64,000 bases of DNA. Source: a phage. The notes below the pieces were generated by a model. It searched no databases, was not told where the DNA came from, and worked only from the letters and a program-made list of their open reading frames with translations. The stretch lies in the sequence record OZ346187.1; one strand, written 5' to 3'. This document shows positions 1,174 through 61,555 of the stretch, in pieces (positions within the stretch are counted from its first letter, which is position 1; the number at the start of each line of letters is the position of its first letter). Made by a program: the position numbers and the translations under genes.

Positions 1174-1938
1174 TTGAAATTCATCTACAAAGAACACTAC
1201 CACAAAGGTGTTGTGTGGAGTCTATTTGACGGGTCTGGTGGTGCAGTTATTGACTGGGCAAAAGCTGGGTACCTGTGCCTGTGCTTTAATGCAGAAGGTG
1301 CTGACCACGGCAGTTATGCAGAGGTGATAACCGATCATCCTAACATTCACTATGTGGATTATTGGATTGACCCATGGTTCCCTCAGGAAACTTTTTGCAT
1401 GTATCCAGCTCCAGACTTTATTCTTGCATTTCCTCCGTGCACGCATTTAGCGGTATCAGGTGCTGCACATTTTAAGAAAAAGCTGGCTAAGGATCCTTTG
1501 ATCCAAATTAATGCTGTAAAGGATGCTCGGGTTGCGGAAGAGTTGGGAGAGATTTACGATTGCCCGTGGCATGTAGAGAATCCTGTAGGGGTTATGTCCA
1601 CACTGTGGCGAAAACCTGATTACCGTTTTCATCCTTCGGATTATGGTGGGTATTTACCGGAGGATGATGTAAACCCCTGGTTTCCTGAATTTATAGCTCC
1701 ACGTGATGCCTACCCAAAAATAACTTGCGGCTGGATAGGCAATGGATTTATAATCCCGGCCACAAAACCTGTCCCGCAAATAGTTGACGCGGTTAGCGGG
1801 TATTCCATGCAACACGCCAAGCTGGGTGGAAAGAGTGCAAGAACGAAGATGATCCGAAGCCTCACGCCACGTGGCTGGGCAAAAGCCGTATTCTTAGCAA
1901 ACGAGCCTGTAGTAAGGAGCAGAATTAATGGGAAGTAA
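1174..1938 (+). CDS. divergent C5-cytosine methyltransferase-like protein
   Basis: Motifs in canonical order: FDGSGG (motif I FxGxGG), FPPCTHLAVSG (motif IV PC-), WHVENPVG (motif VI ENV); probable TTG start after AGGAGA RBS (ORF-track start 1144 lies inside the terminator hairpin). Confidence 0.45.
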   Translation: MKFIYKEHYHKGVVWSLFDGSGGAVIDWAKAGYLCLCFNAEGADHGSYAEVITDHPNIHYVDYWIDPWFPQETFCMYPAPDFILAFPPCTHLAVSGAAHFKKKLAKDPLIQINAVKDARVAEELGEIYDCPWHVENPVGVMSTLWRKPDYRFHPSDYGGYLPEDDVNPWFPEFIAPRDAYPKITCGWIGNGFIIPATKPVPQIVDAVSGYSMQHAKLGGKSARTKMIRSLTPRGWAKAVFLANEPVVRSRINGK

Positions 1939-4006
1939 ATTTATGGCATCTGCATACAACCGTTTCGGTGAGCCAAACCCGAAAGCAATTAAGTATAAAA
2001 GTGGGGGAAGTGTGAAACGAGACTATCGTGATGAAAAAGAGGTTGAAACTGTAGAGACTGTTTTAGAAAATACTAAAATCGTCCCTGTCCCACAACAAAA
2101 TATCGGTCTGATGGCTGCACAATATTTTGGTGTGCGATCAGCATTGTCCCAAGAAGACGGTGTGACAGTCACTGCAACATATTTCCCATATTACGACCGA
2201 TACGGAAATCTGTCCGGTTTCAAAAAGCGTGACTGGACTATTCCTAAAGAACAAAGGGGCCACTTCTCCGTTGTTGGCATAGTAAAGGCCAACTCCCAGA
2301 TGTTTGGTCAAAAGCTGTGTGCATCTTCCAACAACCGTAAGCAGATTAACGTTTGTGAGGGAGAAGGTGATGTTATTGCAGCATGGCAGGCTGCATATCA
2401 GATACAAGTAAAAGGGATTCTCACCAACGCTAAAGCCCCGGCAAAGGTGAAGCAGTGGGCTAAAGAGGTCCAGGACGGGATCGACGCAGTTATCAACGGT
2501 GGTGATCTGGCAGGAAAACCCTGCCTGCCTTTTGTTGGAATTAACTGTGGATGTGCAAACGCAGTAGATACTTTTGCAAACAATGAGAAGTTTATCCGTA
2601 GCTATGGAACAGTTGTGCTGGCAATGGATAACGATGCAGCTAACGAGGTAGAGAAGCAAAAACACGTCATTAAAGGTGTTGAGGCCACGCACAATATCGC
2701 AGCATTTTTGATGGCTGATAACGTTTACCACGTAGAATACCCTGGTGAAGTAAATGACCCTGACGGGGTAAAAGATATCCGTGACATGCTGAAGGCTAAA
2801 AAGCTGGAAGATATTGTCAACATGTTCCGGCACCCTGTTAAATATGTGCCTGATGCTGTGTCGGATTTAGAAGACTTCTCTATCGAGTCTTTGCGGAAAA
2901 AGACTTCCAACGGGGTAGATATCAGCGCAGAGTTCCCAAAACTGCAAAAAATGCTAAAAGGCTTGCACAAAGGGACACTCGTAATGCTTACAGGGCCATC
3001 AGGGGGCGGTAAAACAACTGTAGCTAAAAAACTGGAACATTGTATTGCAAGATACCTAATGGACCCGACATGCCCGAAGGCTGATGACTATGAAGAGGAT
3101 GATCGTCTATGTATGATCCATCTTGAGGAGGACCCAGAGGAAGCAATTAACTCCTTGTATGCAAACCAGTTAGGGTTTGATGTTAAAGAGTTTGTTGAAG
3201 ATCCTAGCCAGTTTTTAACTGATCAAGAACACGCAGAGATTCACCAATCATGGGCAAAAGCTGGAAAAATCAAAGTGTTCAAACATTTCGGATCTATTCC
3301 GGTGGACGAGTTGATTACCAAGCTTAAGCAAATGGTTTGCCTGTACCATTGCCGTTATATTGTGCTGGATCACCTATCCATGGTAATTTCAGGGCTTAAT
3401 GTTAAGGATGAGCGAAAAGAACTGGACATGGCTATGACTCAGCTGGCTGCGTTTTGTAAGCAGTTTAACGTGTTTATCTTGGTGATCGCTCACCTCAAAC
3501 GTACAGAGATTGTGCCTCCTAAGGACAAGGATGGTAACCCGTTACCTTTCTGGTATCCTGTGCGAAAAGAGAATTTGCGAGGATCGGCGGGGCTTGAACA
3601 GTTGAGTTGGGTAGTCATAGGTGTCGAGGCCGAAGAAATGGTGGATCGTTCTCGTGGACGTGTCCGTCTGGTAGGTCTTAAAAACCGTCCAGCAAAAACT
3701 CTAGGTATTGCTGACACTTTGGTTATGGACCCGCACACAGGTAAGTTCCATGATGCCAGTAATTGGTACTGGGACAAAGAAATGCAAATGTTTACAGACG
3801 GAGAAGGTGGGGAGGTTGTTTGGAGACCTCAGGCTATGTTTGAGGATCAGGAGCATGCAGTTGTAGAAACACCTATGGGCAAGGTTGTGGCTGATAAGGT
3901 TGTAACTCCTACTGTTAAGCCTGTTGACACGCAGGAAGACCTCCAGTACGATGATCCATCCTCTGACCCGGTCCCTGGTTTTGAGGATGATGAAACGCCT
4001 TTTTAA
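1928..4006 (+). CDS. DNA primase-helicase (TOPRIM + DnaB-like helicase)
   Basis: TOPRIM-like NVCEGEGD; Walker A LTGPSGGGKTT; DnaB-like CRYIVLDHLSM; acidic C-terminal tail ending DDETPF. Confidence 0.8.
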   Translation: MGSKFMASAYNRFGEPNPKAIKYKSGGSVKRDYRDEKEVETVETVLENTKIVPVPQQNIGLMAAQYFGVRSALSQEDGVTVTATYFPYYDRYGNLSGFKKRDWTIPKEQRGHFSVVGIVKANSQMFGQKLCASSNNRKQINVCEGEGDVIAAWQAAYQIQVKGILTNAKAPAKVKQWAKEVQDGIDAVINGGDLAGKPCLPFVGINCGCANAVDTFANNEKFIRSYGTVVLAMDNDAANEVEKQKHVIKGVEATHNIAAFLMADNVYHVEYPGEVNDPDGVKDIRDMLKAKKLEDIVNMFRHPVKYVPDAVSDLEDFSIESLRKKTSNGVDISAEFPKLQKMLKGLHKGTLVMLTGPSGGGKTTVAKKLEHCIARYLMDPTCPKADDYEEDDRLCMIHLEEDPEEAINSLYANQLGFDVKEFVEDPSQFLTDQEHAEIHQSWAKAGKIKVFKHFGSIPVDELITKLKQMVCLYHCRYIVLDHLSMVISGLNVKDERKELDMAMTQLAAFCKQFNVFILVIAHLKRTEIVPPKDKDGNPLPFWYPVRKENLRGSAGLEQLSWVVIGVEAEEMVDRSRGRVRLVGLKNRPAKTLGIADTLVMDPHTGKFHDASNWYWDKEMQMFTDGEGGEVVWRPQAMFEDQEHAVVETPMGKVVADKVVTPTVKPVDTQEDLQYDDPSSDPVPGFEDDETPF

Positions 4007-4068: not shown

Positions 4069-7000
4069 ATGAGTATGTGGAATTTTGACTTTGAGGCCTC
4101 AGGTCTTCTGGACGAGGAAGATCTTTACTACCATTGTGGCCTGTTTAAAGAGTTGAATAAAAATAATTTTATGTTGTTTTTGCCTATCAATGATAGATCT
4201 CATTACAGTGAAGAGGAGGTTGAAAAAGCAAAACAATTTATGCTGGCAAAGCAAGATATCTATCCTAGCTGCTCTGTCCGTATTGCGGATTTCAGCCAGC
4301 TTGAATGGTGGTTAACCGGGAACTCCGATTGGTCACCCACATCATTAAGTTGTCACAACTGTTTTAGTTATGACTTTATCTTGATGGAGAAGCTGTCTGG
4401 TATTCATTTTGATATGTTCCGTGATCCCAAGTGTATGGGGACAATCAATAATCATCAGGTGAACCTGTTCGACACTCTGCCAATGAGTCGTATACTATGG
4501 CCCGACAGACCGTTACCTAAAGGATGCCCTGATTCTGTATACAATCCTGTTACAAAACGTATGCAGCAGGTAGGTCCTCATGGCCTAATGGCGTGGGGGT
4601 ACGCTTTAGGAAACCAGAAGGTTAAAATTGATGACTGGAGAAATTTACCTCTGTGGAAGTATGTTGATCGTGTATTCGAGGACGTTATCATCCAGGAGCT
4701 GCTCTGGAAAGAGCTGGTAGCGGAATCAAAAGGTGTATTCTACGGCAAATCTGACATGCAGAACTTTATGTACGATCCAGCCAAAGAGAAGCCGAAAGGG
4801 TTCAAGAAGATTACCTGGAAGAATGCATTACGCCGAGGCATGCTGCAGCACTTCCTGATGGAGCTGCAGGCCCGTCAGGGTGTATACTTCGACATAGATG
4901 GAGCTATTGCTTTACGTGACCGTTGCGATGCGTGGATGAAAGAAATCGCTGATCGTGTTGAACCACAACTACCTTTAAAAGAGCTGTCAATGTCTCAGCG
5001 GCCCAAGTTCCCTGAAAAGCCGTTTAACCAAGACGGGACAATCTCTAATAATGGTTGGAAATGGTTAAAAGATAAGCTTGGCTATCCTGTAGACATGAGT
5101 GCTTTAGAGTTCAAAGCCCCGCCTAAGCGAGCATTTACCTCTACAGGAGATGTCAGCAAGATGGGGATAAAATGGTGTGAAGAGATGGGCTGCAAAGACC
5201 CCGATAAGATGGCTGATTTCTTGAGAGGCTATATTAAGGGCACCTCCACACCACAACCCTTACCTAAAGAGCTGATGGATCAGGCAATAAGTGATCTGCA
5301 GCAGAAGCGAATGCCTGACTGCAAGATACCTATGAAAATCAGCAATCAGGACGACATCAAGCGATACCTAATCAGTGCTGGTTGGCTCCCAACAATGTGG
5401 AGAACTAAAGATGTAACTAAAGACAGCAAGAAGAAAGCTTTACCTGATGCAGATGTTGATGCACGAGTATATGCATATATGGACGAGCTTTTGGAGTCAG
5501 AGTATTGTGACCTAATTATCAACTTCTGGAACAAAACTGATGCTAAGTTCCAGACAACCGTGCACAAGTTCCGAAGCTTTCCTAACTCCGAAAGGATTAA
5601 AAAGGAAGTATTCGGGAAAATACGTAGAAAAGCCAGGGCACTTATTACTTCTCCGCAACTGAAAGATACGTTTGGACACCTATGCCCAAATCTTGAAAAA
5701 TTGAACGGAGAGATGGCTAAAGATATCGTCTTGTGGTTATCATTGCGAAACCGCAGATCGGTCCTTGATCCAATCAAGGAGGATAAGGTTGATACTGGTC
5801 TTCTTAATCACCCACGTTTGAAGATTGACCATAAGCTTCCTGCTAAAAGCTCTGGATTAACAAACACTTCCAGACAGAAACACAGTATTTGTGCAAACAT
5901 GCCTAAACCATCTCCTAAAGTGGTTATGGGTAAAGAGATGCGTAGTCTGTGGGGTGTTCCTCCGGGATACTTTGAGATCGGTATTGACGGGTCCAACTTA
6001 GAGCAGCTTATCGGGGCTTGGGGTGCCTTTGAGTTCGACAACGGCCTGTATTATGATGTTGTAAGTAATGGCGATGCACACTGTTATTCAGGAGATACAC
6101 AAATTCTCACGGAGAAAGGGTGGGTGAGGTTTGAAGATCTTGATCCGGGAACACAAGTGTTCCAGTACGATCACAACACCTCGTCAATGAACCTTGTTAC
6201 TCCATTAAATTACGTTAAGCGTAGTTATTGTGGGGATATGTATCATTTCCACAACAGTAGTGTGGATTTTATGGTTACAGATCAACACAGGATGCTGACT
6301 GTGGATCACAGAAGCAATAAATTGTTTGAAGATTTGGCAAAAGACCTGAAAGCAGGTAAAGGGTCTAATTCAGGAAGAAGGTTTATCCATGCGGCAGAGT
6401 TTTATGGGAATACAACCTTATCTCCTGCCCAGGTTAATTTGCTTATTGCTATTCACGATGATGGGCACTTGCATACAAATAAGGACGGCAGCATCGTGTG
6501 CAGGATTCAGGTCGGAAAGGGAAGAAAAGTTGCAACGCTTTTAGATACTTTTTCTGCTCTAAGCCTTAGTTATGTAGAGCAGAGCGGGAAAACCACAAAA
6601 GGGGGCTTACTGGCGAGAAGGTTCCAATTCCACGTTCCGTCCTGGGTATTTGAGTTTTTGGACAACAATAAGGATTTCACCTATAACCTGATGAACCTTG
6701 ATAAAGAATCTAAAAACCTGTTTATAGCTTCTTTATCTAACTGGGACGGGTGGGTATCTTCCGAAGGTGGAAAGGTTGCTTACTACTCCCAGGCCGAGTG
6801 CAGGAAGAAATCTGTAGAGGTGGTGTCTGCGCTGGCTACTCAGTGTGGTTTACGGAATAATACGGTGGCGATTCACAAAAAAGGTCGTGCCGTGCAGCAC
6901 AGAATCACAATTGGTAGCAAACAGAGAGCAGGGTTGCTGACACTATCTAAAGAGTCTGTCGAGGTGAGCGGTTCTTTGGTTTATTGCGTTACCGTCCCTT

Positions 7001-7401
7001 CTGGAGCAATCATTGTGAGAAGGAATGGTAAAGTGGCAGTGTGCGGTAACTGTAATAACGCCAAAGCTTACTCTTCTGTAGCAGGCAAGGAGATTTCCCG
7101 TAACGATGGTAAACCTATCACGTATGGGGTTATGTATGGGGCACAAAAAGATAAAGTTGCAGATATGCTGGACATCTCCCCAGAGTTGGGACAAAGGGTA
7201 ATCGATGCACTCTGGGATGCCAACCCAGGTCTTAAGGGGCGCAAAGAGGATCTGGAGAAATTCTGGGAAGCAACAGGTAAGAAGTTTATCTACTCTTTTG
7301 ATGGTCATGCTATCTGGACCCGATCTAAACACTCTTTACTTAATGCATACCAACAAAATGGCGGTGCATCGTTGTGTGACTTAGTTGGAATACTCATGCA
7401 C
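4069..7401 (+). CDS. DNA polymerase, family A, exon 1 (contains an in-frame intein; ORF reads through to a stop at 7467 inside the intron)
   Basis: 3'-5' exo motifs FDFEASGL (Exo I) and CHNCFSYDF (Exo II); motif B-like RNDGKPITYGVMYGAQ; ORF ends ...GILMH just before the expected HDE of motif C. Confidence 0.85.
6082..7050 (+). mobile_element. intein with LAGLIDADG homing-endonuclease domain inside DNA polymerase
   Basis: Starts CYSGDTQILTEKG (intein block A), TDQHRML (block B TxxH), LAGLIDADG-like LLIAIHDDGH and LFIASLSNWDGW, ends ...VAVCGN followed by Cys (+1). Confidence 0.65.
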
Positions 7402-7737
7402 CACCAGATGGTGAAGCGTGGGTGGTACGATGAAGGTGTTCGTCGTATTATTTATTACCATAAATAACATTGTGGCTTCATAGAGTAATCTATGTCGAAT
7501 AACCTCTTTAACTGCGGGAAGCCTAAACCTTATGGCAAGGTAATCCGCAACGAAGCGCTCAAAAGAGCGAACGCTCAGAGGCCATTCCGAAAGGAAGTAG
7601 ACCAGCAAGTGCGGTCGAAATGGGAGGATTCCTGTGGTTGCTTATCATAGGAATATGAGATGGTCCGATCCTACGTGAAAACGTATGGCTATGCACGTAA
7701 TGGTGCGGGGTAGCTTAACGACCTACCTGAACTATTG
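7402..7737 (+). mobile_element. group I intron without ORF, interrupting DNA polymerase at motif C (boundaries approximate)
   Basis: P-like AACTGCGGGAAG, Q-like AATCCGCAAC, R-like CTCAGAGGCCA, S-like AGATGGTCCGATCC; joining exons gives ...ILMH-DEYQLQV. Confidence 0.6.
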
Positions 7738-8091
7738 GATGAGTACCAACTTCAAGTGCCTGACACACCGAAGTATAAGACTGTGTACACCTTCGACACA
7801 ATTGAAGAACTGGAAGCATTTAAGGCAGAGCAGGAAGCCAAACTTCATGTGTTCGACGGTCATAAGTACAAAAAGGCACGCAAGGATGAGGACGGAAACG
7901 AAGTGGTTGACAGAGACGGAAACACGGTGTACGATCCTATCCTGAACGATGACGGAAAGCTTGAACTTATCTGGAGCCCTGTGGGTGAAATGGTGGTACA
8001 TTGCTTCTGGCAAGCTTCTAAAATGATGGGAGTCCCGTTCCAGATCACAGGTGAATACTTGTGTGGTCGTAATTGGGGTGATTGTCACTAA
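7738..8091 (+). CDS. DNA polymerase, family A, exon 2 (C-terminal part)
   Basis: Begins DEYQLQV (completes motif C HDE) and ends GRNWGDCH, the conserved C-terminal His of family-A polymerases. Confidence 0.7.
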   Translation, partial: DEYQLQVPDTPKYKTVYTFDTIEELEAFKAEQEAKLHVFDGHKYKKARKDEDGNEVVDRDGNTVYDPILNDDGKLELIWSPVGEMVVHCFWQASKMMGVPFQITGEYLCGRNWGDCH

Positions 8092-16092: not shown

Positions 16093-16344
16093 TATTTCAC
16101 CGGGCCAGATATTTTAAAATTCTTAGAAAATCAGGTCTTTGAAATGAAAAACAGATCGAGTACCGAAAGAGGATGTACAAATTTTCTGATAATAATGGAC
16201 TTATTGTTATAAAAGGTCAGAGGTAAGCTGGGAAAGTTCTGGTAGAAGGGTGAGAGTATGTGCGGAAAAATCTGGAATAGTGACTTAAAGTACGGTGCGA
16301 ACGATAAGGAATTGAGCAGCACATCTTATCGTGCCTGTATTTTG

Positions 16345-16730
16345 TGTGGATGAATGAGAATACCTATCATTGTGAGAACCATTATCATTACGGGCAATTT
16401 AACAGTACCGATTATGCGCACCACTGGCGATACATACAGGGATTGATAACATGGGTTACTGTTTACGCACATAACAATTGTATTTCTTACTATTTGTGTG
16501 GGCGTTTAGACGTTGACGGTCAGAAGTCTGCAGGTTAATATCTAATCTATTGGCTGCTAACTATATCCCACACAAATAGTAAGAAATACAATTGTTATGT
16601 GCGTAAACAGTAACCCATGTTATCAATCCCTGTATGCATGCCAGTGGTGCGCATAATGGGTATTATGTTAAATTGCCCGTAATGATAATGGTTCTCACAA
16701 TGATAGGTATTCTCATTCATCCACACAAAA
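16345..16730. repeat. long near-perfect inverted repeat (~160-bp arms 16345-16504 and 16569-16730, ~65-bp spacer)
   Basis: Arms are reverse complements; ORF-track ORFs 16344-16538(+) and 16595-16786(-) translate the same peptide (NENTYHCENHYHYGQFN) from both arms. Confidence 0.85.
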
Positions 16731-34086: not shown

Positions 34087-35349
34087 TCAGCAACTACAAC
34101 TTCCATAGTGCTTAACTCGCTCGATAACTTCCGCTTGCTTACCTTTATTGTAAGGACGGGAGTTAGGACTGGAAAGGTATCCAGACACACGTCGAATTAC
34201 ACTGATCGTTCCCTCTTCATGGTTTCCACACTCTGGGCATACAAAGCCTTTAGCTGTTGCACTGAACTCACCAGAGAAACCACACTTGAGACATTTATCC
34301 ACAGGTTGGTTAATACCAAAATACATAATATGTTTATACCCGAAGTCAACAAGAGCCTCTAAAGCATCCAGGTTGTTTTTCAGGTTAGGTGTCTCTACGT
34401 ATCCAATGTTGCCACCAGAGGAGATCATAGCAAAACCTTCCTCATACTCCCACTTATCAAAAGGAGAGCTATTTATCCACACTGGCTGATGGAAACTGTT
34501 GGTGAGATATTCATGCTCGTGCTTTAACACTTCTGGATATTCACGATCCAGACAGGTTGCAGCTTTATAGCATAGACTCTCAGAAGGAGTGCCGTACAAG
34601 CTAAATGCTAGTCTACTTTCCTTCTTGTATCGCTCACAAGCATCTCTCATGTGCTGAAGGATTCCAAGAGCTAAAGCCTTGTCACCTTCTCTGCCCAAAA
34701 TCTGACAGGTTTCATACACACCAATATACCCAATACTGATGGAAGCGTACCCGTCATAGAAGAGTTTATCAATACTTTCTTCGGGATCCAGGCGAGCAAG
34801 AGCGCCTTCACACCACATGATGGGGTTCTGCCCTGCCTTTGTTCCTTTTAGACGGTTAACCCTTACAAGGTGAGCCTCGTATGCAAGATCCAAGTATTCG
34901 TCAAGAACTGCAAAGAAATCAACACATTCCGTCTTAGCTTTTGCCGCAATCATTGGCAGGTTAAGGCTAACAACACCCAAGTTGAATCTGCCGAGGTATT
35001 TCTCCTCACCTGTTTCCAAGTCATTGTATTTGCTAAGAAAACTCCGGCAACCCATACTCGTTACTTTGCCATCTGTCGAGCCTGTCACTTTACGATTTAG
35101 TGGAACAGAAACAAAGTCAGGATAAATCCGCTCTGCAGAGCATTCCAGAGCTAATCGTTTCAAATCATAGTTAGGATCTCCGGGGTTCATGTTGACACCC
35201 TCTTCTAGGAAGAACAGCACTTTAGGGAACACAGGTGTGATACGTTCTTCACCAAGACCCATTTTGTGGACTTTCAAGTAATTTTTGGTAATCATTCTAC
35301 CAAAGACCGAGGTATCCAGTCCTAAACTTAATGTGATGAATGGAGTCTG
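34087..35349 (-). CDS. nrdD: anaerobic ribonucleotide reductase NrdD, exon 2
   Basis: Glycyl-radical motif RRVSGYL; strong similarity to the T4 NrdD C-terminal half; exon begins QTPFITLSLG upstream of ORF-track start 35295. Confidence 0.85.
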   Translation of the reverse strand, partial: QTPFITLSLGLDTSVFGRMITKNYLKVHKMGLGEERITPVFPKVLFFLEEGVNMNPGDPNYDLKRLALECSAERIYPDFVSVPLNRKVTGSTDGKVTSMGCRSFLSKYNDLETGEEKYLGRFNLGVVSLNLPMIAAKAKTECVDFFAVLDEYLDLAYEAHLVRVNRLKGTKAGQNPIMWCEGALARLDPEESIDKLFYDGYASISIGYIGVYETCQILGREGDKALALGILQHMRDACERYKKESRLAFSLYGTPSESLCYKAATCLDREYPEVLKHEHEYLTNSFHQPVWINSSPFDKWEYEEGFAMISSGGNIGYVETPNLKNNLDALEALVDFGYKHIMYFGINQPVDKCLKCGFSGEFSATAKGFVCPECGNHEEGTISVIRRVSGYLSSPNSRPYNKGKQAEVIERVKHYGSCSC

Positions 35350-36146
35350 CTGTCTCCTCCCTGTGTTTCCACAGGGCCAGACTATCTATTACTCTACTTC
35401 AATAAGATAATAACCCTTTATTGTGAGATGCTTACCTTCGGCATTTCCTTCGATAGCCCTGTGAACGTTACCTACGTTCAAATTTAAGGCTTTTGCACAG
35501 GCGTAGAGTGAAGGATATTCACCCACCAAGATTTTCCCTTTGTATGCCTGCACTTTCCTATAGCACTTACCTGGACAAAGTCCTGTTCGGAAAGCATGTC
35601 TCTTATTATCTTCCGGCAAAACCCACTCTAGGTTAGACGGATGATCATTCAATGTATTGCCATCTTTATGATTCACTTCCCAGTTTTCAGGGTCTTCTGG
35701 GACATCTGGCAAACAATACAAGGCAACAACCCTTGAGGTTTGGATTCGAATCTTTTTACCTTTGTGGTTGAAAGAGTACATATAACGGCGTTTAACATGC
35801 TTATTACCTTTTCCATAACCTCCCCACAATATTGGGTGCAGCATTCCACGTTTTCCGTATACGTTTCCAACTTCATCAATCACATAGTTTGATTCTTCAC
35901 CATTAAGAATGATCTTTTTCATAGAGCCTCTCCATTTCGAAGTTAGTATTTCAACTAACCCCTACACTACTTGGTTCAGAAATGTTTGTCAAGCATCTCT
36001 GCCTTTCGTTAGTCGTTACAACCGTTCCAACTCCTGTAAGAACTAGTCACGGGATTGGCATAGCTTTCGCCTTAGCGTTCCCCGTTAGCCGGATTTACCG
36101 ACCCCTCTTATGAGGTTAGGAGAGTTTTACAACGGCCAGTTTGTTA
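35350..36146 (-). mobile_element. group I intron in nrdD carrying an HNH homing-endonuclease ORF
   Basis: 5' exon ends GGU, intron starts UAA; ACGGGGAAC and CAAUCCCGUG elements as in the T4 td/nrdD introns; S-like UAGAUAGUCUGG at the ORF stop; intron ends in G before CAG. Confidence 0.8.
35389..35922 (-). CDS. HNH homing endonuclease (intron-encoded)
   Basis: EVNHKDGNTLNDHPSNLEWV...NKRHA HNH motif; lies entirely inside the nrdD intron. Confidence 0.75.
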   Translation of the reverse strand: MKKIILNGEESNYVIDEVGNVYGKRGMLHPILWGGYGKGNKHVKRRYMYSFNHKGKKIRIQTSRVVALYCLPDVPEDPENWEVNHKDGNTLNDHPSNLEWVLPEDNKRHAFRTGLCPGKCYRKVQAYKGKILVGEYPSLYACAKALNLNVGNVHRAIEGNAEGKHLTIKGYYLIEVE

Positions 36147-37007
36147 ACCGTTGACAGAAGTTAACGTATTGATTTGATAGAGCAAAGTCTGCATGCTGTC
36201 AAATACGTCTTTATCTGTCATTTGCATTGCAACAGTCTCAGCATCTGGCAACCAATGTTCCTGGCAAAATTTAAGGTTCTTCTCATAAGTCGCCTCAGCA
36301 TACTGTGCCAAATAATGGTCAATATGGCTCATAGTCTGACCCCCATATTGAGCACTAGCTACTGCACTAGAGATTTGGCTAAGGATTGTTGTTGCAACCC
36401 CTATTGACTTCGGCTTACTGACATGGGCGTTACCAATGTTGAATCCGTTTTCCAACATATCTGGATAATTTACCAAACAACAGTTTGTTAACGGACTGAT
36501 CAAGTAGTCAAGATCATGCACATGGATGAAGCCTTTATTGTGCTCTTCTGAGACACGGTCTGGCAGGATCTGTGTTGATGCAAGGTGTTTGCTAAGGATG
36601 CCTGCAAGCAGGTCACGATGAGTGTGTACATGATTGGTAGGCTTATTTGCGTTTTCTTTTGTAAATTCATCACAAGTTCGATCCAAGAAGCCACTAATAT
36701 CTGCAAGCAGTTTTCCACCTGCCTCTCTGTTATTATCTCTTGTCTGTCTATACTGGATGTATTCTCTGGCTGCACATTTTAAACCCATATCCATAAGAGC
36801 ATCTTCAACAAGGATATGGATATTTTTTACAGAGATCGTGCACTGGTCGGTTGGTAGATTGTTAGCAACAACTTCATTAACCGCACAAGCGATCCGGTAA
36901 GCTTCTTCTTCAGTATGTCCAGACTCAAGTAAGGCGGACTCTGCCGCCTTGATCACCTTAATTCCGTTATAGACCTCTTCTCTACCGTCCCGTTTTACAA
37001 CTTTCAC
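36147..37007 (-). CDS. nrdD: anaerobic ribonucleotide reductase NrdD, exon 1
   Basis: GFIHVHDLDY, TNCCLVNYPDMLENGF, KSIGVATTILSQ match T4 NrdD; ends ...TLTSVNG at the splice site. Confidence 0.85.
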
Positions 37008-60742: not shown

Positions 60743-60817
60743 GCCCTGTTAGCTTAGTGGATAAAGCAGCGGCCTTCTAAGCCGTTGACACTGGTTCGAG
60801 TCCAGTACGGGGTGCCA
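60743..60817 (+). tRNA. tRNA-Arg (anticodon TCT), CCA encoded
   Basis: Cloverleaf: acceptor GCCCTGT/ACGGGGT, D-arm GCTT..AAGC, anticodon loop CTTCTAA, T-arm ACTGG-TTCGAGT-CCAGT. Confidence 0.8.
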
Positions 60818-60821
60818 AATT

Positions 60822-60908
60822 GGGGAGTTATCCCGTAGAGGTAGCGGTGTAGACTGTAAATCTATTGTCATTGCGACTCGGGTGGTTCGACTCCACCACT
60901 CCCCACCA
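60822..60908 (+). tRNA. tRNA-Tyr (anticodon GTA), long variable arm, CCA encoded
   Basis: Acceptor GGGGAGT/ACTCCCC, anticodon arm GTAGA-CTGTAAA-TCTAT (GACUGUAAAUC as in E. coli tRNA-Tyr), T-arm GGTGG-TTCGACT-CCACC. Confidence 0.8.
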
Positions 60909-61022
60909 AATTTATATTTTTAGATGCATAAATAATACAGATAATGGCATTGATATTTATCGTCGTTTATACTAGTCACTAACTGCTCGAAAATCAGTGT
61001 CATTATCAGTATAATTTATAAA

Positions 61023-61113
61023 GGAGGGTAGGGAGCAATGGTGCTCAAGCGGTCTTGAAAACCGTCCCGTTGAGGATGACTCGATGATGGTTCGATTCCA
61101 TTACTCTCCGCCA
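61023..61113 (+). tRNA. tRNA-Ser (anticodon TGA), type II, CCA encoded
   Basis: Acceptor GGAGGGT/ACTCTCC, anticodon arm GCGGT-CTTGAAA-ACCGT, long variable arm, T-arm GATGG-TTCGATT-CCATT. Confidence 0.75.
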
Positions 61114-61211
61114 CATTGTTGACCTTGTAATTAAGCGAAAGCCGGAAGCAGAACCGGATTATCAAATGTTACAGTCGTCATCGCCGACTAGCAACATGGT
61201 CAACATACTGA

Positions 61212-61310
61212 GCTAGGTAAGCCCTTTGGCAAGGGCGAGGATTTTTAATCCTGAAAATAGACGAGGTAGTCGTTGAATACATAGGTGGTTCGATTCCATC
61301 ACCTAGCACC
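61212..61310 (+). tRNA. atypical tRNA-like gene (possible tRNA-Lys TTT with ~30-nt extra arm) or tRNA pseudogene
   Basis: Perfect acceptor GCTAGGT/ACCTAGC, D-arm GCCC-TTTGGCAA-GGGC, T-arm GGTGG-TTCGATT-CCATC, but 47 nt between D and T arms; loop TTTTTAA on a 4-bp stem. Confidence 0.4.
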
Positions 61311-61315
61311 TTTTT

Positions 61316-61391
61316 GCTGATGTAGCACAATCGGTAGTGCAATTGATTTGTAATCAATAGGTTGTAGGTTCAAGTCCTGCCATCAGCACCA
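61316..61391 (+). tRNA. tRNA-Thr (anticodon TGT), CCA encoded
   Basis: Acceptor GCTGATG/CATCAGC, D-arm GCAC..GTGC, anticodon arm ATTGA-TTTGTAA-TCAAT, T-arm GTAGG-TTCAAGT-CCTGC. Confidence 0.8.
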
Positions 61392-61392
61392 A

Positions 61393-61467
61393 GGCCCTGT
61401 AGCTGGAAGGTTCAAGCAAGCGACTCATAATCGCCAGACGGTGGTTCAATTCCACCCAGGGCCACCA
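61393..61467 (+). tRNA. tRNA-Met or Ile2 (anticodon CAT), elongator-type, CCA encoded
   Basis: Acceptor GGCCCTG/CAGGGCC with G1-C72 pair, anticodon loop CTCATAA, T-arm GGTGG-TTCAATT-CCACC. Confidence 0.75.
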
Positions 61468-61478
61468 AATAGTAAATA

Positions 61479-61555
61479 CTCCGCGTAGCTCAGCTTGGTA
61501 GAGCGCCTGATTTGGGATCAGGAGGTCGAGTGTTCGAATCACTCCGTGGAGACCA
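61479..61555 (+). tRNA. tRNA-Pro (anticodon TGG), CCA encoded
   Basis: Acceptor CTCCGCG/CGTGGAG, D-arm GCTC-AGCTTGGTA-GAGC, anticodon arm CCTGA-TTTGGGA-TCAGG, T-arm GAGTG-TTCGAAT-CACTC. Confidence 0.8.

Follow-up and report, generated by a model that had tools for sequence, protein, structure and literature searches.

An intein with a LAGLIDADG endonuclease domain that interrupts a family A DNA polymerase in an rV5-like phage

Closest described inteins and intron–intein genes

Among described systems, the inteins of the Bethlehem recombination directionality factor (RDF) and of AceL NrdHF provide the nearest comparisons for a 323-amino-acid (aa) intein encoded at positions 6082–7050 of a 64,000-nucleotide (nt) stretch of phage DNA (OZ346187.1, hereafter the window). 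The intein contains a double-motif LAGLIDADG endonuclease and lies between motifs A and B of a T7-like family A DNA polymerase. The Bethlehem RDF intein, from a mycobacteriophage (gp51; annotated as gp52, 'phosphoesterase', in AY500153), belongs to the same family and matches the family profile over its full length (127.8 bits, E = 3e-41). It was found to splice completely, restoring the penultimate His (G316H) slowed the reaction, and its endonuclease was toxic (PMC5050341). Common to the two inteins, which measure 317 and 323 aa, respectively, are Cys1, a TxxH block, a Gly-Asn end, a LAGLIDADG endonuclease, and a Cys in block F (VWCLRV in Bethlehem, VYCVTV in the window). The pairwise similarity is nevertheless low, and the Bethlehem host protein is a phosphoesterase-type RDF of an actinobacteriophage. 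The Bethlehem intein also ends in TGN followed by Ser at the +1 position, whereas the +1 residue in the window is Cys.

The closest solved structure to the window intein is that of AceL NrdHF (PDB: 6zgq), whose signature (M70-C124-T144-G145-N146, with R69) agrees with that of the window family in the Cys at F:4, the Gly in place of the penultimate His, and the Arg after the block-B His. Experiments have placed this intein in class 3: C124 acts as the first nucleophile, and R69 helps the Asn to cyclise, the usual His being absent (PMC7891396). The AceL intein is naturally split and lacks an endonuclease; it begins with Ala1, Thr occupies G:5, Ser follows at +1, and the host is a ribonucleotide-reductase-related gene. 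The window intein, in contrast, is a contiguous element that begins with an invariant Cys1 and carries Cys at both G:5 and +1. The inteins PI-SceI, PI-PfuI, PI-PkoII, and TliVMA/PhoVMA likewise combine a HINT domain with LAGLIDADG motifs, but are only 13–17% identical to the window intein and are larger, with extra DNA-recognition regions. They end in His-Asn, have Asp at F:4, and are of archaeal or yeast rather than phage origin.

The presence of an intein and an intron in one phage gene is already known. In Pectobacterium phage CB7 (Vequintavirinae), both are present in NrdA and in NrdB, and the introns of the CB7 polymerase gene have been shown to splice by reverse transcription PCR (PMC7344957). 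The ribonucleotide reductase genes of SPbeta-type Bacillus prophages likewise combine the two elements, as cited in PMC4760082. In each case, as in the window, an essential gene of nucleotide metabolism or replication is occupied by a group I intron, often with an HNH gene, and by an intein, often with a LAGLIDADG domain. In CB7, inteins occupy the helicase, NrdA, and NrdB, and the polymerase holds introns alone, whereas the window intein is in the polymerase itself. Inteins of DNA polymerase I are already on record (PMC4760082). No published description of a Vequintavirus polymerase intein was found in the open-access literature, and an intein is annotated in none of the seven GenBank records that carry it. 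The polymerase intein described here is a well-supported, ordinary case.

The insertion in the polymerase gene

The insertion, its fold and motifs, the selection acting on it, and the footprint of its transfer are all observed, and they make it very probable that 6082–7050 encodes an intein that is both functional and mobile, placed in a replicative DNA polymerase of family A. The source phage is a Vequintavirus (an rV5-like E. coli myophage) by sequence match of the region, 4069–8091 being matched by 134 phage records. The open reading frame (ORF) at 4069–7467 encodes a T7-like family A DNA polymerase (phmmer against T7 DNA polymerase, E = 7e-16). The insertion within it is 323 codons in length, stop-free, and in frame. 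MaxTheCat and rV5, phages that lack the intein, align to 4069–6081 and 7078–8091 with a length difference of exactly 969 nt. At the site where the window has CNNAKAYSSVAGKEI, empty alleles read QNNAEAYTKVAGREV. In terms of protein, ...SNGDAH is followed directly by QNNAEAYTKVAGREVSRNDG in an empty allele, and by the 323 aa and then CNNAKAYSSVAGKEISRNDG in the window.

A first-pass annotation, made from the letters of the window, had proposed an intein here, and its coordinates and all of the features it listed are correct. The translation of 6082–7050 begins with CYSGDTQILT, presents its TxxH block as TDQH at residues 66–69 and two LAGLIDADG-like motifs as LLIAIHDDG at residues 120–128 and FIASLSNWDG at residues 214–223, and ends in VAVCGN, the Asn being followed by a Cys codon (CNNAKAY...). 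The placement just upstream of motif B (RNDGKPITYGVMYGAQ) also holds, as the motif begins at nt 7099, 16 codons past the insertion. Only the N-terminus is canonical, however; the C-terminus is Gly-Asn and not His-Asn, and block F presents a Cys (VYCVTV, residues 300–305) where class 1 inteins usually have Asp. The parts of the gene are given below, with the limits of the HINT and endonuclease domains approximate and drawn from AlphaFold2 secondary structure.

4069–6081 (+): N-extein, first part of exon 1, ending ...VVSNGDAH; motif A is IDGSNLE
6082–7050 (+): intein, 323 aa, Cys1...Gly322-Asn323
6082–6393 (+): HINT domain, N-terminal half, about aa 1–104; block A CYSGDTQILTEKGW; block B VTDQHRM (T66, H69, R70, M71)
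6394–6936 (+): LAGLIDADG homing-endonuclease domain, about aa 105–285; motif 1 LLIAIHDDG (D127), motif 2 FIASLSNWDG (D222)
6937–7050 (+): HINT domain, C-terminal part, about aa 286–323; block F VYCVTVPSG (C302 = F:4); block G VAVCGN (C321 = G:5, G322 = G:6, then N323)
7051–7461 (+): C-extein inside exon 1, with Cys+1 at 7051–7053 and motif B (RNDGKPITYGVMYGAQ) at 7099–7146; ends ...RIIYYH, the final His belonging to motif C (HDE)
6045–7112 (+): approximate gene-conversion patch, the intein plus both flanks, from mismatch maps and identity by segment
7462–7737 (+): group I intron of 276 nt, which in the window phage lacks an endonuclease ORF
7738–8091 (+): polymerase exon 2, DEYQLQV...NWGDCH, then stop
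1928–4006: primase/helicase, upstream of the polymerase gene
Predicted spliced junction peptide: ...YYDVVSNGDAHCNNAK
MaxTheCat-type empty site: ...GTAAGTAACGGGGACGCACAC joined to CAAAACAATGCTGAGGCATATAC...

Removal of the intein and the intron in silico gives a polymerase of 925 aa, against 1,248 aa for the precursor that retains the intein. In the seven GenBank records with the intein, a 1,132-aa frame is labelled 'DNA polymerase' or 'hypothetical protein' and, in several, exon 2 is a separate gene. The spliced 925-aa product aligns to T7 gp5 straight through the junction (phmmer). The insert has no counterpart in the T7 polymerase; the first-pass annotation had named alignment to a normal polymerase subdomain as an outcome that would count against an intein. 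In this alignment, IDGS corresponds to D475 (motif A), RNDGKPITYGVMYGA to R518...K522...Y526 (motif B), and YYH/DE to H653-D654-E655 (motif C), the slash marking an insertion point. At the intein, NGDAH/C corresponds to NGDIH506/T507. The insertion falls between the equivalents of T7 His506 and Thr507, with His671 as the last residue of the N-extein. From these positions, the intein is placed in the fingers, beside nucleotide-binding residues; T7 His506 presumably contacts the incoming nucleotide. Splicing would thus be needed for polymerase activity.

It is very unlikely that the insertion is never removed, either as an accessory domain that the polymerase keeps or because the gene is a pseudogene. 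A retained insertion would interrupt the fingers, and seven independently isolated, viable phages carry it with the frame intact in their sole polymerase gene. Furthermore, every splice-junction residue is conserved and the fold is that of an intein.

The same site, read as GDxH, then the intein, then T/S, is filled by related inteins in two polymerases that are 42–45% identical (P0007 and P0009) and in a third that is 75% identical (P0002). The inteins themselves are 37% (P0007), 40% (P0009), and 88% (P0002) identical to that of the window, broadly tracking the identity of the exteins. The site is an old insertion point that has been used repeatedly. Another arrangement is seen in metagenomic proteins that carry at least two copies of this intein family (P0018, P0017, P0014, P0008, and P0004). 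In P0018, a family A polymerase, one copy is just before a CQNI motif, apparently the PNLQNIP-type motif of the polymerase, and another is inside motif B (...CGQ/SVNFGVFYGL). Family A polymerases thus offer this intein family several insertion points.

Intein family, fold and transfer

An exhaustive HMMER search retrieved 7,698 proteins at E ≤ 1e-3, of which 2,145 also passed E ≤ 1e-10; a word-indexed protein search with the intein alone as the query returned nothing at E ≤ 1e-5. The best 150 proteins contain 132 full-length copies, at differing positions in host proteins of very different length. All 132 copies begin with Cys, 116 end in Gly-Asn, and 11 end in Gly-Gln. The +1 residue is Cys in 79, Ser in 40, and Thr in 12 copies (131/132 C/S/T). 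Among annotated phages, proteins interrupted by this element include nicotinamide phosphoribosyltransferase (NadV), the two subunits of class I ribonucleotide reductase (NrdA and NrdB), PhoH, and others, with copies that are 26–30% identical to the window intein over the full length. The family profile covers 6082–7050 of the window in full (E = 2e-99, six-frame translation), and no further copies of the family were identified in the window by the same comparison.

Residues C1, H69, and C302 are invariant in a 34-sequence alignment and likewise in a 133-sequence alignment (C302 in 133/133). Across the 133 sequences, position 66 is Thr or Ser in 100%, position 321 (G:5) is Thr, Ser, or Cys in 92% (57, 40, and 25 sequences, respectively), Gly322 is present in 130, and position 323 is Asn in 120 and Gln in 11. 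Most members have an Arg right after the block-B His, and the family lacks a block-F His. Within the endonuclease domain, D127 (95%) and D222 (96%) are conserved in the family, as are the basic residues K146, R148, K149, and K197, with K149 and K197 at 95% or more. The family profile matches the AceL NrdHF intein (E = 3e-16, profile positions 6–110) and the solved VMA intein (E = 1.4e-5, positions 20–289). When 34 family members were compared to Pfam, eight matched Intein_splicing and five matched LAGLIDADG_3 (PF14528; best E = 6e-6).

An AlphaFold calculation with the 34-sequence family alignment produced a model with pLDDT = 94.1 and pTM = 0.91. A single-sequence model was unusable (pLDDT = 34) and was discarded. 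A HINT fold is present in the model, and the endonuclease part is predicted to adopt a pseudo-dimeric α-β-β-α-β-β-α fold. Both LAGLIDADG helices end in an acidic residue and a Gly (LLIAIHDD127G and FIASLSNWD222G), and both DG motifs line up with those of the solved VMA intein (PDB: 7qss). The LAGLIDADG assignment is confirmed by the modelled structure and by the profile alignment of these two motifs.

The junction is covered in 116 phage records, of which 109 are empty and seven are filled. All 109 empty records have a Gln-type flank that is at most 81.7% identical to the spliced window junction, and all seven filled records have a Cys-type flank. An empty allele with a Cys-type flank, representing either precise intein loss or a naive target, was not found among the 116 records. 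The eight alleles consisting of the window and the seven phages retain all 323 codons without a stop. Across these alleles, the ratio of nonsynonymous to synonymous substitution (dN/dS) is 0.07–0.17 for the HINT and endonuclease parts alike, with the endonuclease not exceeding the HINT part, which points to purifying selection. As an aside, 16 records (MG0656xx) named 'Campylobacter phage' are approximately 92–93% identical to this E. coli Vequintavirus polymerase gene and look like rV5-like coliphage sequence under a Campylobacter host label.

Six phages carry an intein that is 97.7–98.5% identical in DNA to that of the window, although their N-exteins reach only 88.0–90.3% identity to the window N-extein. 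The window N-extein is instead 98.4–98.6% identical in nucleotides to those of the intein-less phages MaxTheCat and SophiaRose. From mismatch maps, the switch between donor-like and MaxTheCat-like sequence occurs 27–37 nt upstream and 57–62 nt downstream of the insertion. Within this patch, the window matches the intein-carrying phages and not its otherwise closest, intein-less relatives. Over the downstream tract, filled and empty alleles differ at 21–23 of 57 positions and in six amino acids, including the change from Gln to Cys at +1. Short tracts that flank the site are the footprint expected of break repair begun at the insertion site, and the conversion tract would mark recent homing of a recently acquired intein. 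Since the tract brings the Gln to Cys change, co-conversion supplies the nucleophile required by the intein. By comparison of the alleles, Cys+1 arrived together with the intein, as the empty alleles have at +1 a Gln, which is not a nucleophile.

From these data, a life cycle may be proposed. The intron at 7462–7737 would leave the mRNA first, followed by translation of the 1,248-aa precursor. The bipartite HINT domain would then cut out the 323-aa intein and ligate His671 to Cys+1, giving the 925-aa polymerase. The central domain is a monomeric, double-motif LAGLIDADG homing endonuclease, and its most likely target is the empty polymerase allele of phages infecting the same cell; we infer that this enzyme makes the break to which the conversion tract points. 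Repair off the intein-carrying copy would transfer the intein with short flanks, including the Cys+1 codon in place of Gln.

Several points weigh against a functional, mobile intein. In Pfam, the window sequence alone reaches only 23.6 bits for Hint_2, an N-terminal match below the cut-off of 28.4, and has no match to the LAGLIDADG models at E ≤ 0.1. Since these results are sub-threshold, the type of endonuclease had to be assigned from the profile and fold comparisons. The penultimate His (G:6) is absent, being Gly322, and the block-F His is likewise missing; a penultimate His at G:6 is common, yet not obligatory, in inteins. The empty alleles lack a +1 nucleophile, and a plain insertion without co-conversion would not splice. 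In principle, the transfer footprint could come from ordinary recombination between co-infecting phages and not from endonuclease-initiated repair. Finally, we infer, from sequence and model, the splicing, the endonuclease activity, the cleavage of an empty site and its target, and the order of the chemical steps.

Another reading is of an intein that still splices but has an endonuclease that is no longer active, with spread by ordinary homologous recombination and vertical descent only. The intein is carried by just seven of the 116 records, and the endonuclease domain of the window has no Pfam LAGLIDADG match of its own, both of which would suit an inactive enzyme. This explanation is unlikely, however, given that both catalytic Asp residues and the conserved Lys and Arg residues are kept, and that dN/dS in the endonuclease part is approximately 0.1, not above that of the HINT part. 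In addition, the conversion tracts lie tight against the insertion on either side, the pattern that repair of a break there would leave, and the intein is far better conserved across phages than its host gene. An active homing endonuclease remains the preferred interpretation.

Splicing chemistry, companion introns and implications

The nearest solved relative prompted consideration of class 3 membership, which was rejected since Cys1 is invariant in the family. The sites that make up the WCT triplet in class 3 (Trp B:12, Cys F:4, Thr G:5) are occupied here by Met71, Cys302, and Cys321, of which Cys302 alone agrees. The proven class 3 AceL intein is itself M-C-T at these positions (PMC7891396). 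The favoured chemistry is of the class 1 type, in which an N-S acyl shift at Cys1 would give a thioester that is passed to Cys+1, followed by cyclisation of Asn323 with Arg70 assisting in place of a penultimate His. Two relatives that have been shown to splice, Bethlehem RDF (G316) and AceL NrdHF (G145), also have a penultimate Gly (PMC5050341, PMC7891396).

A class 3 or hybrid route is possible, though doubtful. Here, Cys302 would either attack the N-terminal junction or take the acyl group from Cys1, giving a branched thioester for onward transfer to Cys+1. Such a route would use the Cys at F:4, but the invariance of Cys1 in 133/133 family members argues for its use, the AceL intein has Ala1, Trp B:12 is absent from the window intein, and the study of the Bethlehem RDF member regarded it as class 1 (PMC5050341). 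More tentatively still, the large, mostly phage-borne family defined by Cys1, TxxH-R, an invariant Cys at F:4, and a [T,S,C]-Gly-Asn end may bridge class 1 and class 3. The bridge would take the form of a relay from Cys1 to Cys302 to Cys+1, or of initiation by Cys302 with Cys1 kept; the AceL NrdHF intein, with its Ala1, would be a derived offshoot. The class 1 route remains the one favoured for the window intein.

The polymerase gene is interrupted a second time, by the group I intron that the first-pass annotation had placed in the same gene. Rfam RF00028 matches at 7452–7687 (64.7 bits against a gathering score of 50, E = 4e-14, model positions 1–253). Phage NHEP1 has the intein without the intron and a continuous polymerase coding sequence that joins window position 7461 to 7738; thus, the intron limits are 7462–7737. 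The 5' exon ends in T (T7461), the intron ends in G (G7737), and the intron splits the motif C codons between His and Asp-Glu. Among sister phages, both intein and intron are present in 241Ecol014PP, EPFV3, and YP-6, as in the window, and in Mangalyan and VB-EcoM-WM, where an HNH gene resides inside the same intron. JEP1 has the intein and a longer intron with no annotated HNH gene, constituting a third length variant. MaxTheCat and rV5 have the intron without the intein, and SophiaRose has the intron with the HNH gene and no intein. From these varied combinations, the two invasions are independent, in keeping with the repeated invasion suggested in the first-pass annotation.

The HNH endonuclease ORF is itself polymorphic. 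It is 507 nt in length and is present in the intron at 5035–5541 of L002, 4034–4540 of L006, and 3065–3571 of L010, and missing from the window (7520–7596). In 241Ecol014PP, an HNH gene sits after the polymerase gene instead of inside the intron. Elsewhere in the window, a 797-nt insertion relative to MaxTheCat (35351–36147, in a gene on the minus strand) splits nrdD, which encodes the class III anaerobic ribonucleotide reductase, into ORFs 36144–37007 and 34087–35295. The insertion holds a 177-aa ORF (35389–35922, minus strand) with an HNH-like motif (EVNHKDGNTLNDHPSNLEW), and there is a sub-threshold Rfam group I intron match at 35359–35646 (23.3 bits, E = 0.0023). It is probably a second group I intron with an HNH gene.

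Two further features of the window lie apart from these genes. At 16135–16494, 360 nt separate collinear blocks where MaxTheCat has approximately 12.8 kb (MZ501094, approximately 78.5–91.3 kb) with many small hypothetical genes, a stretch that the window does not have at that place. Six tRNA genes (Rfam) are found at 60743–61552 (+), two of which are barely over the gathering score (35.5 and 29.9 bits).

Inteins, LAGLIDADG homing, and the co-occupancy of phage replication genes by introns and inteins are well established, and current understanding is unchanged by this locus. For annotation, the true product of the polymerase gene would be a 925-aa enzyme whose production takes two splicing events, one of RNA and one of protein. 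As a member of the Gly-Asn/block-F-Cys family in an easily cultured E. coli phage, the intein is a convenient system for addressing the role of the invariant second cysteine. The locus also serves as a clean natural experiment on homing, given that close relatives vary in the presence of the intein, the intron, and the HNH gene, and that the sharply bounded conversion tract of the window has to import the Cys+1 codon, the empty alleles being Gln.

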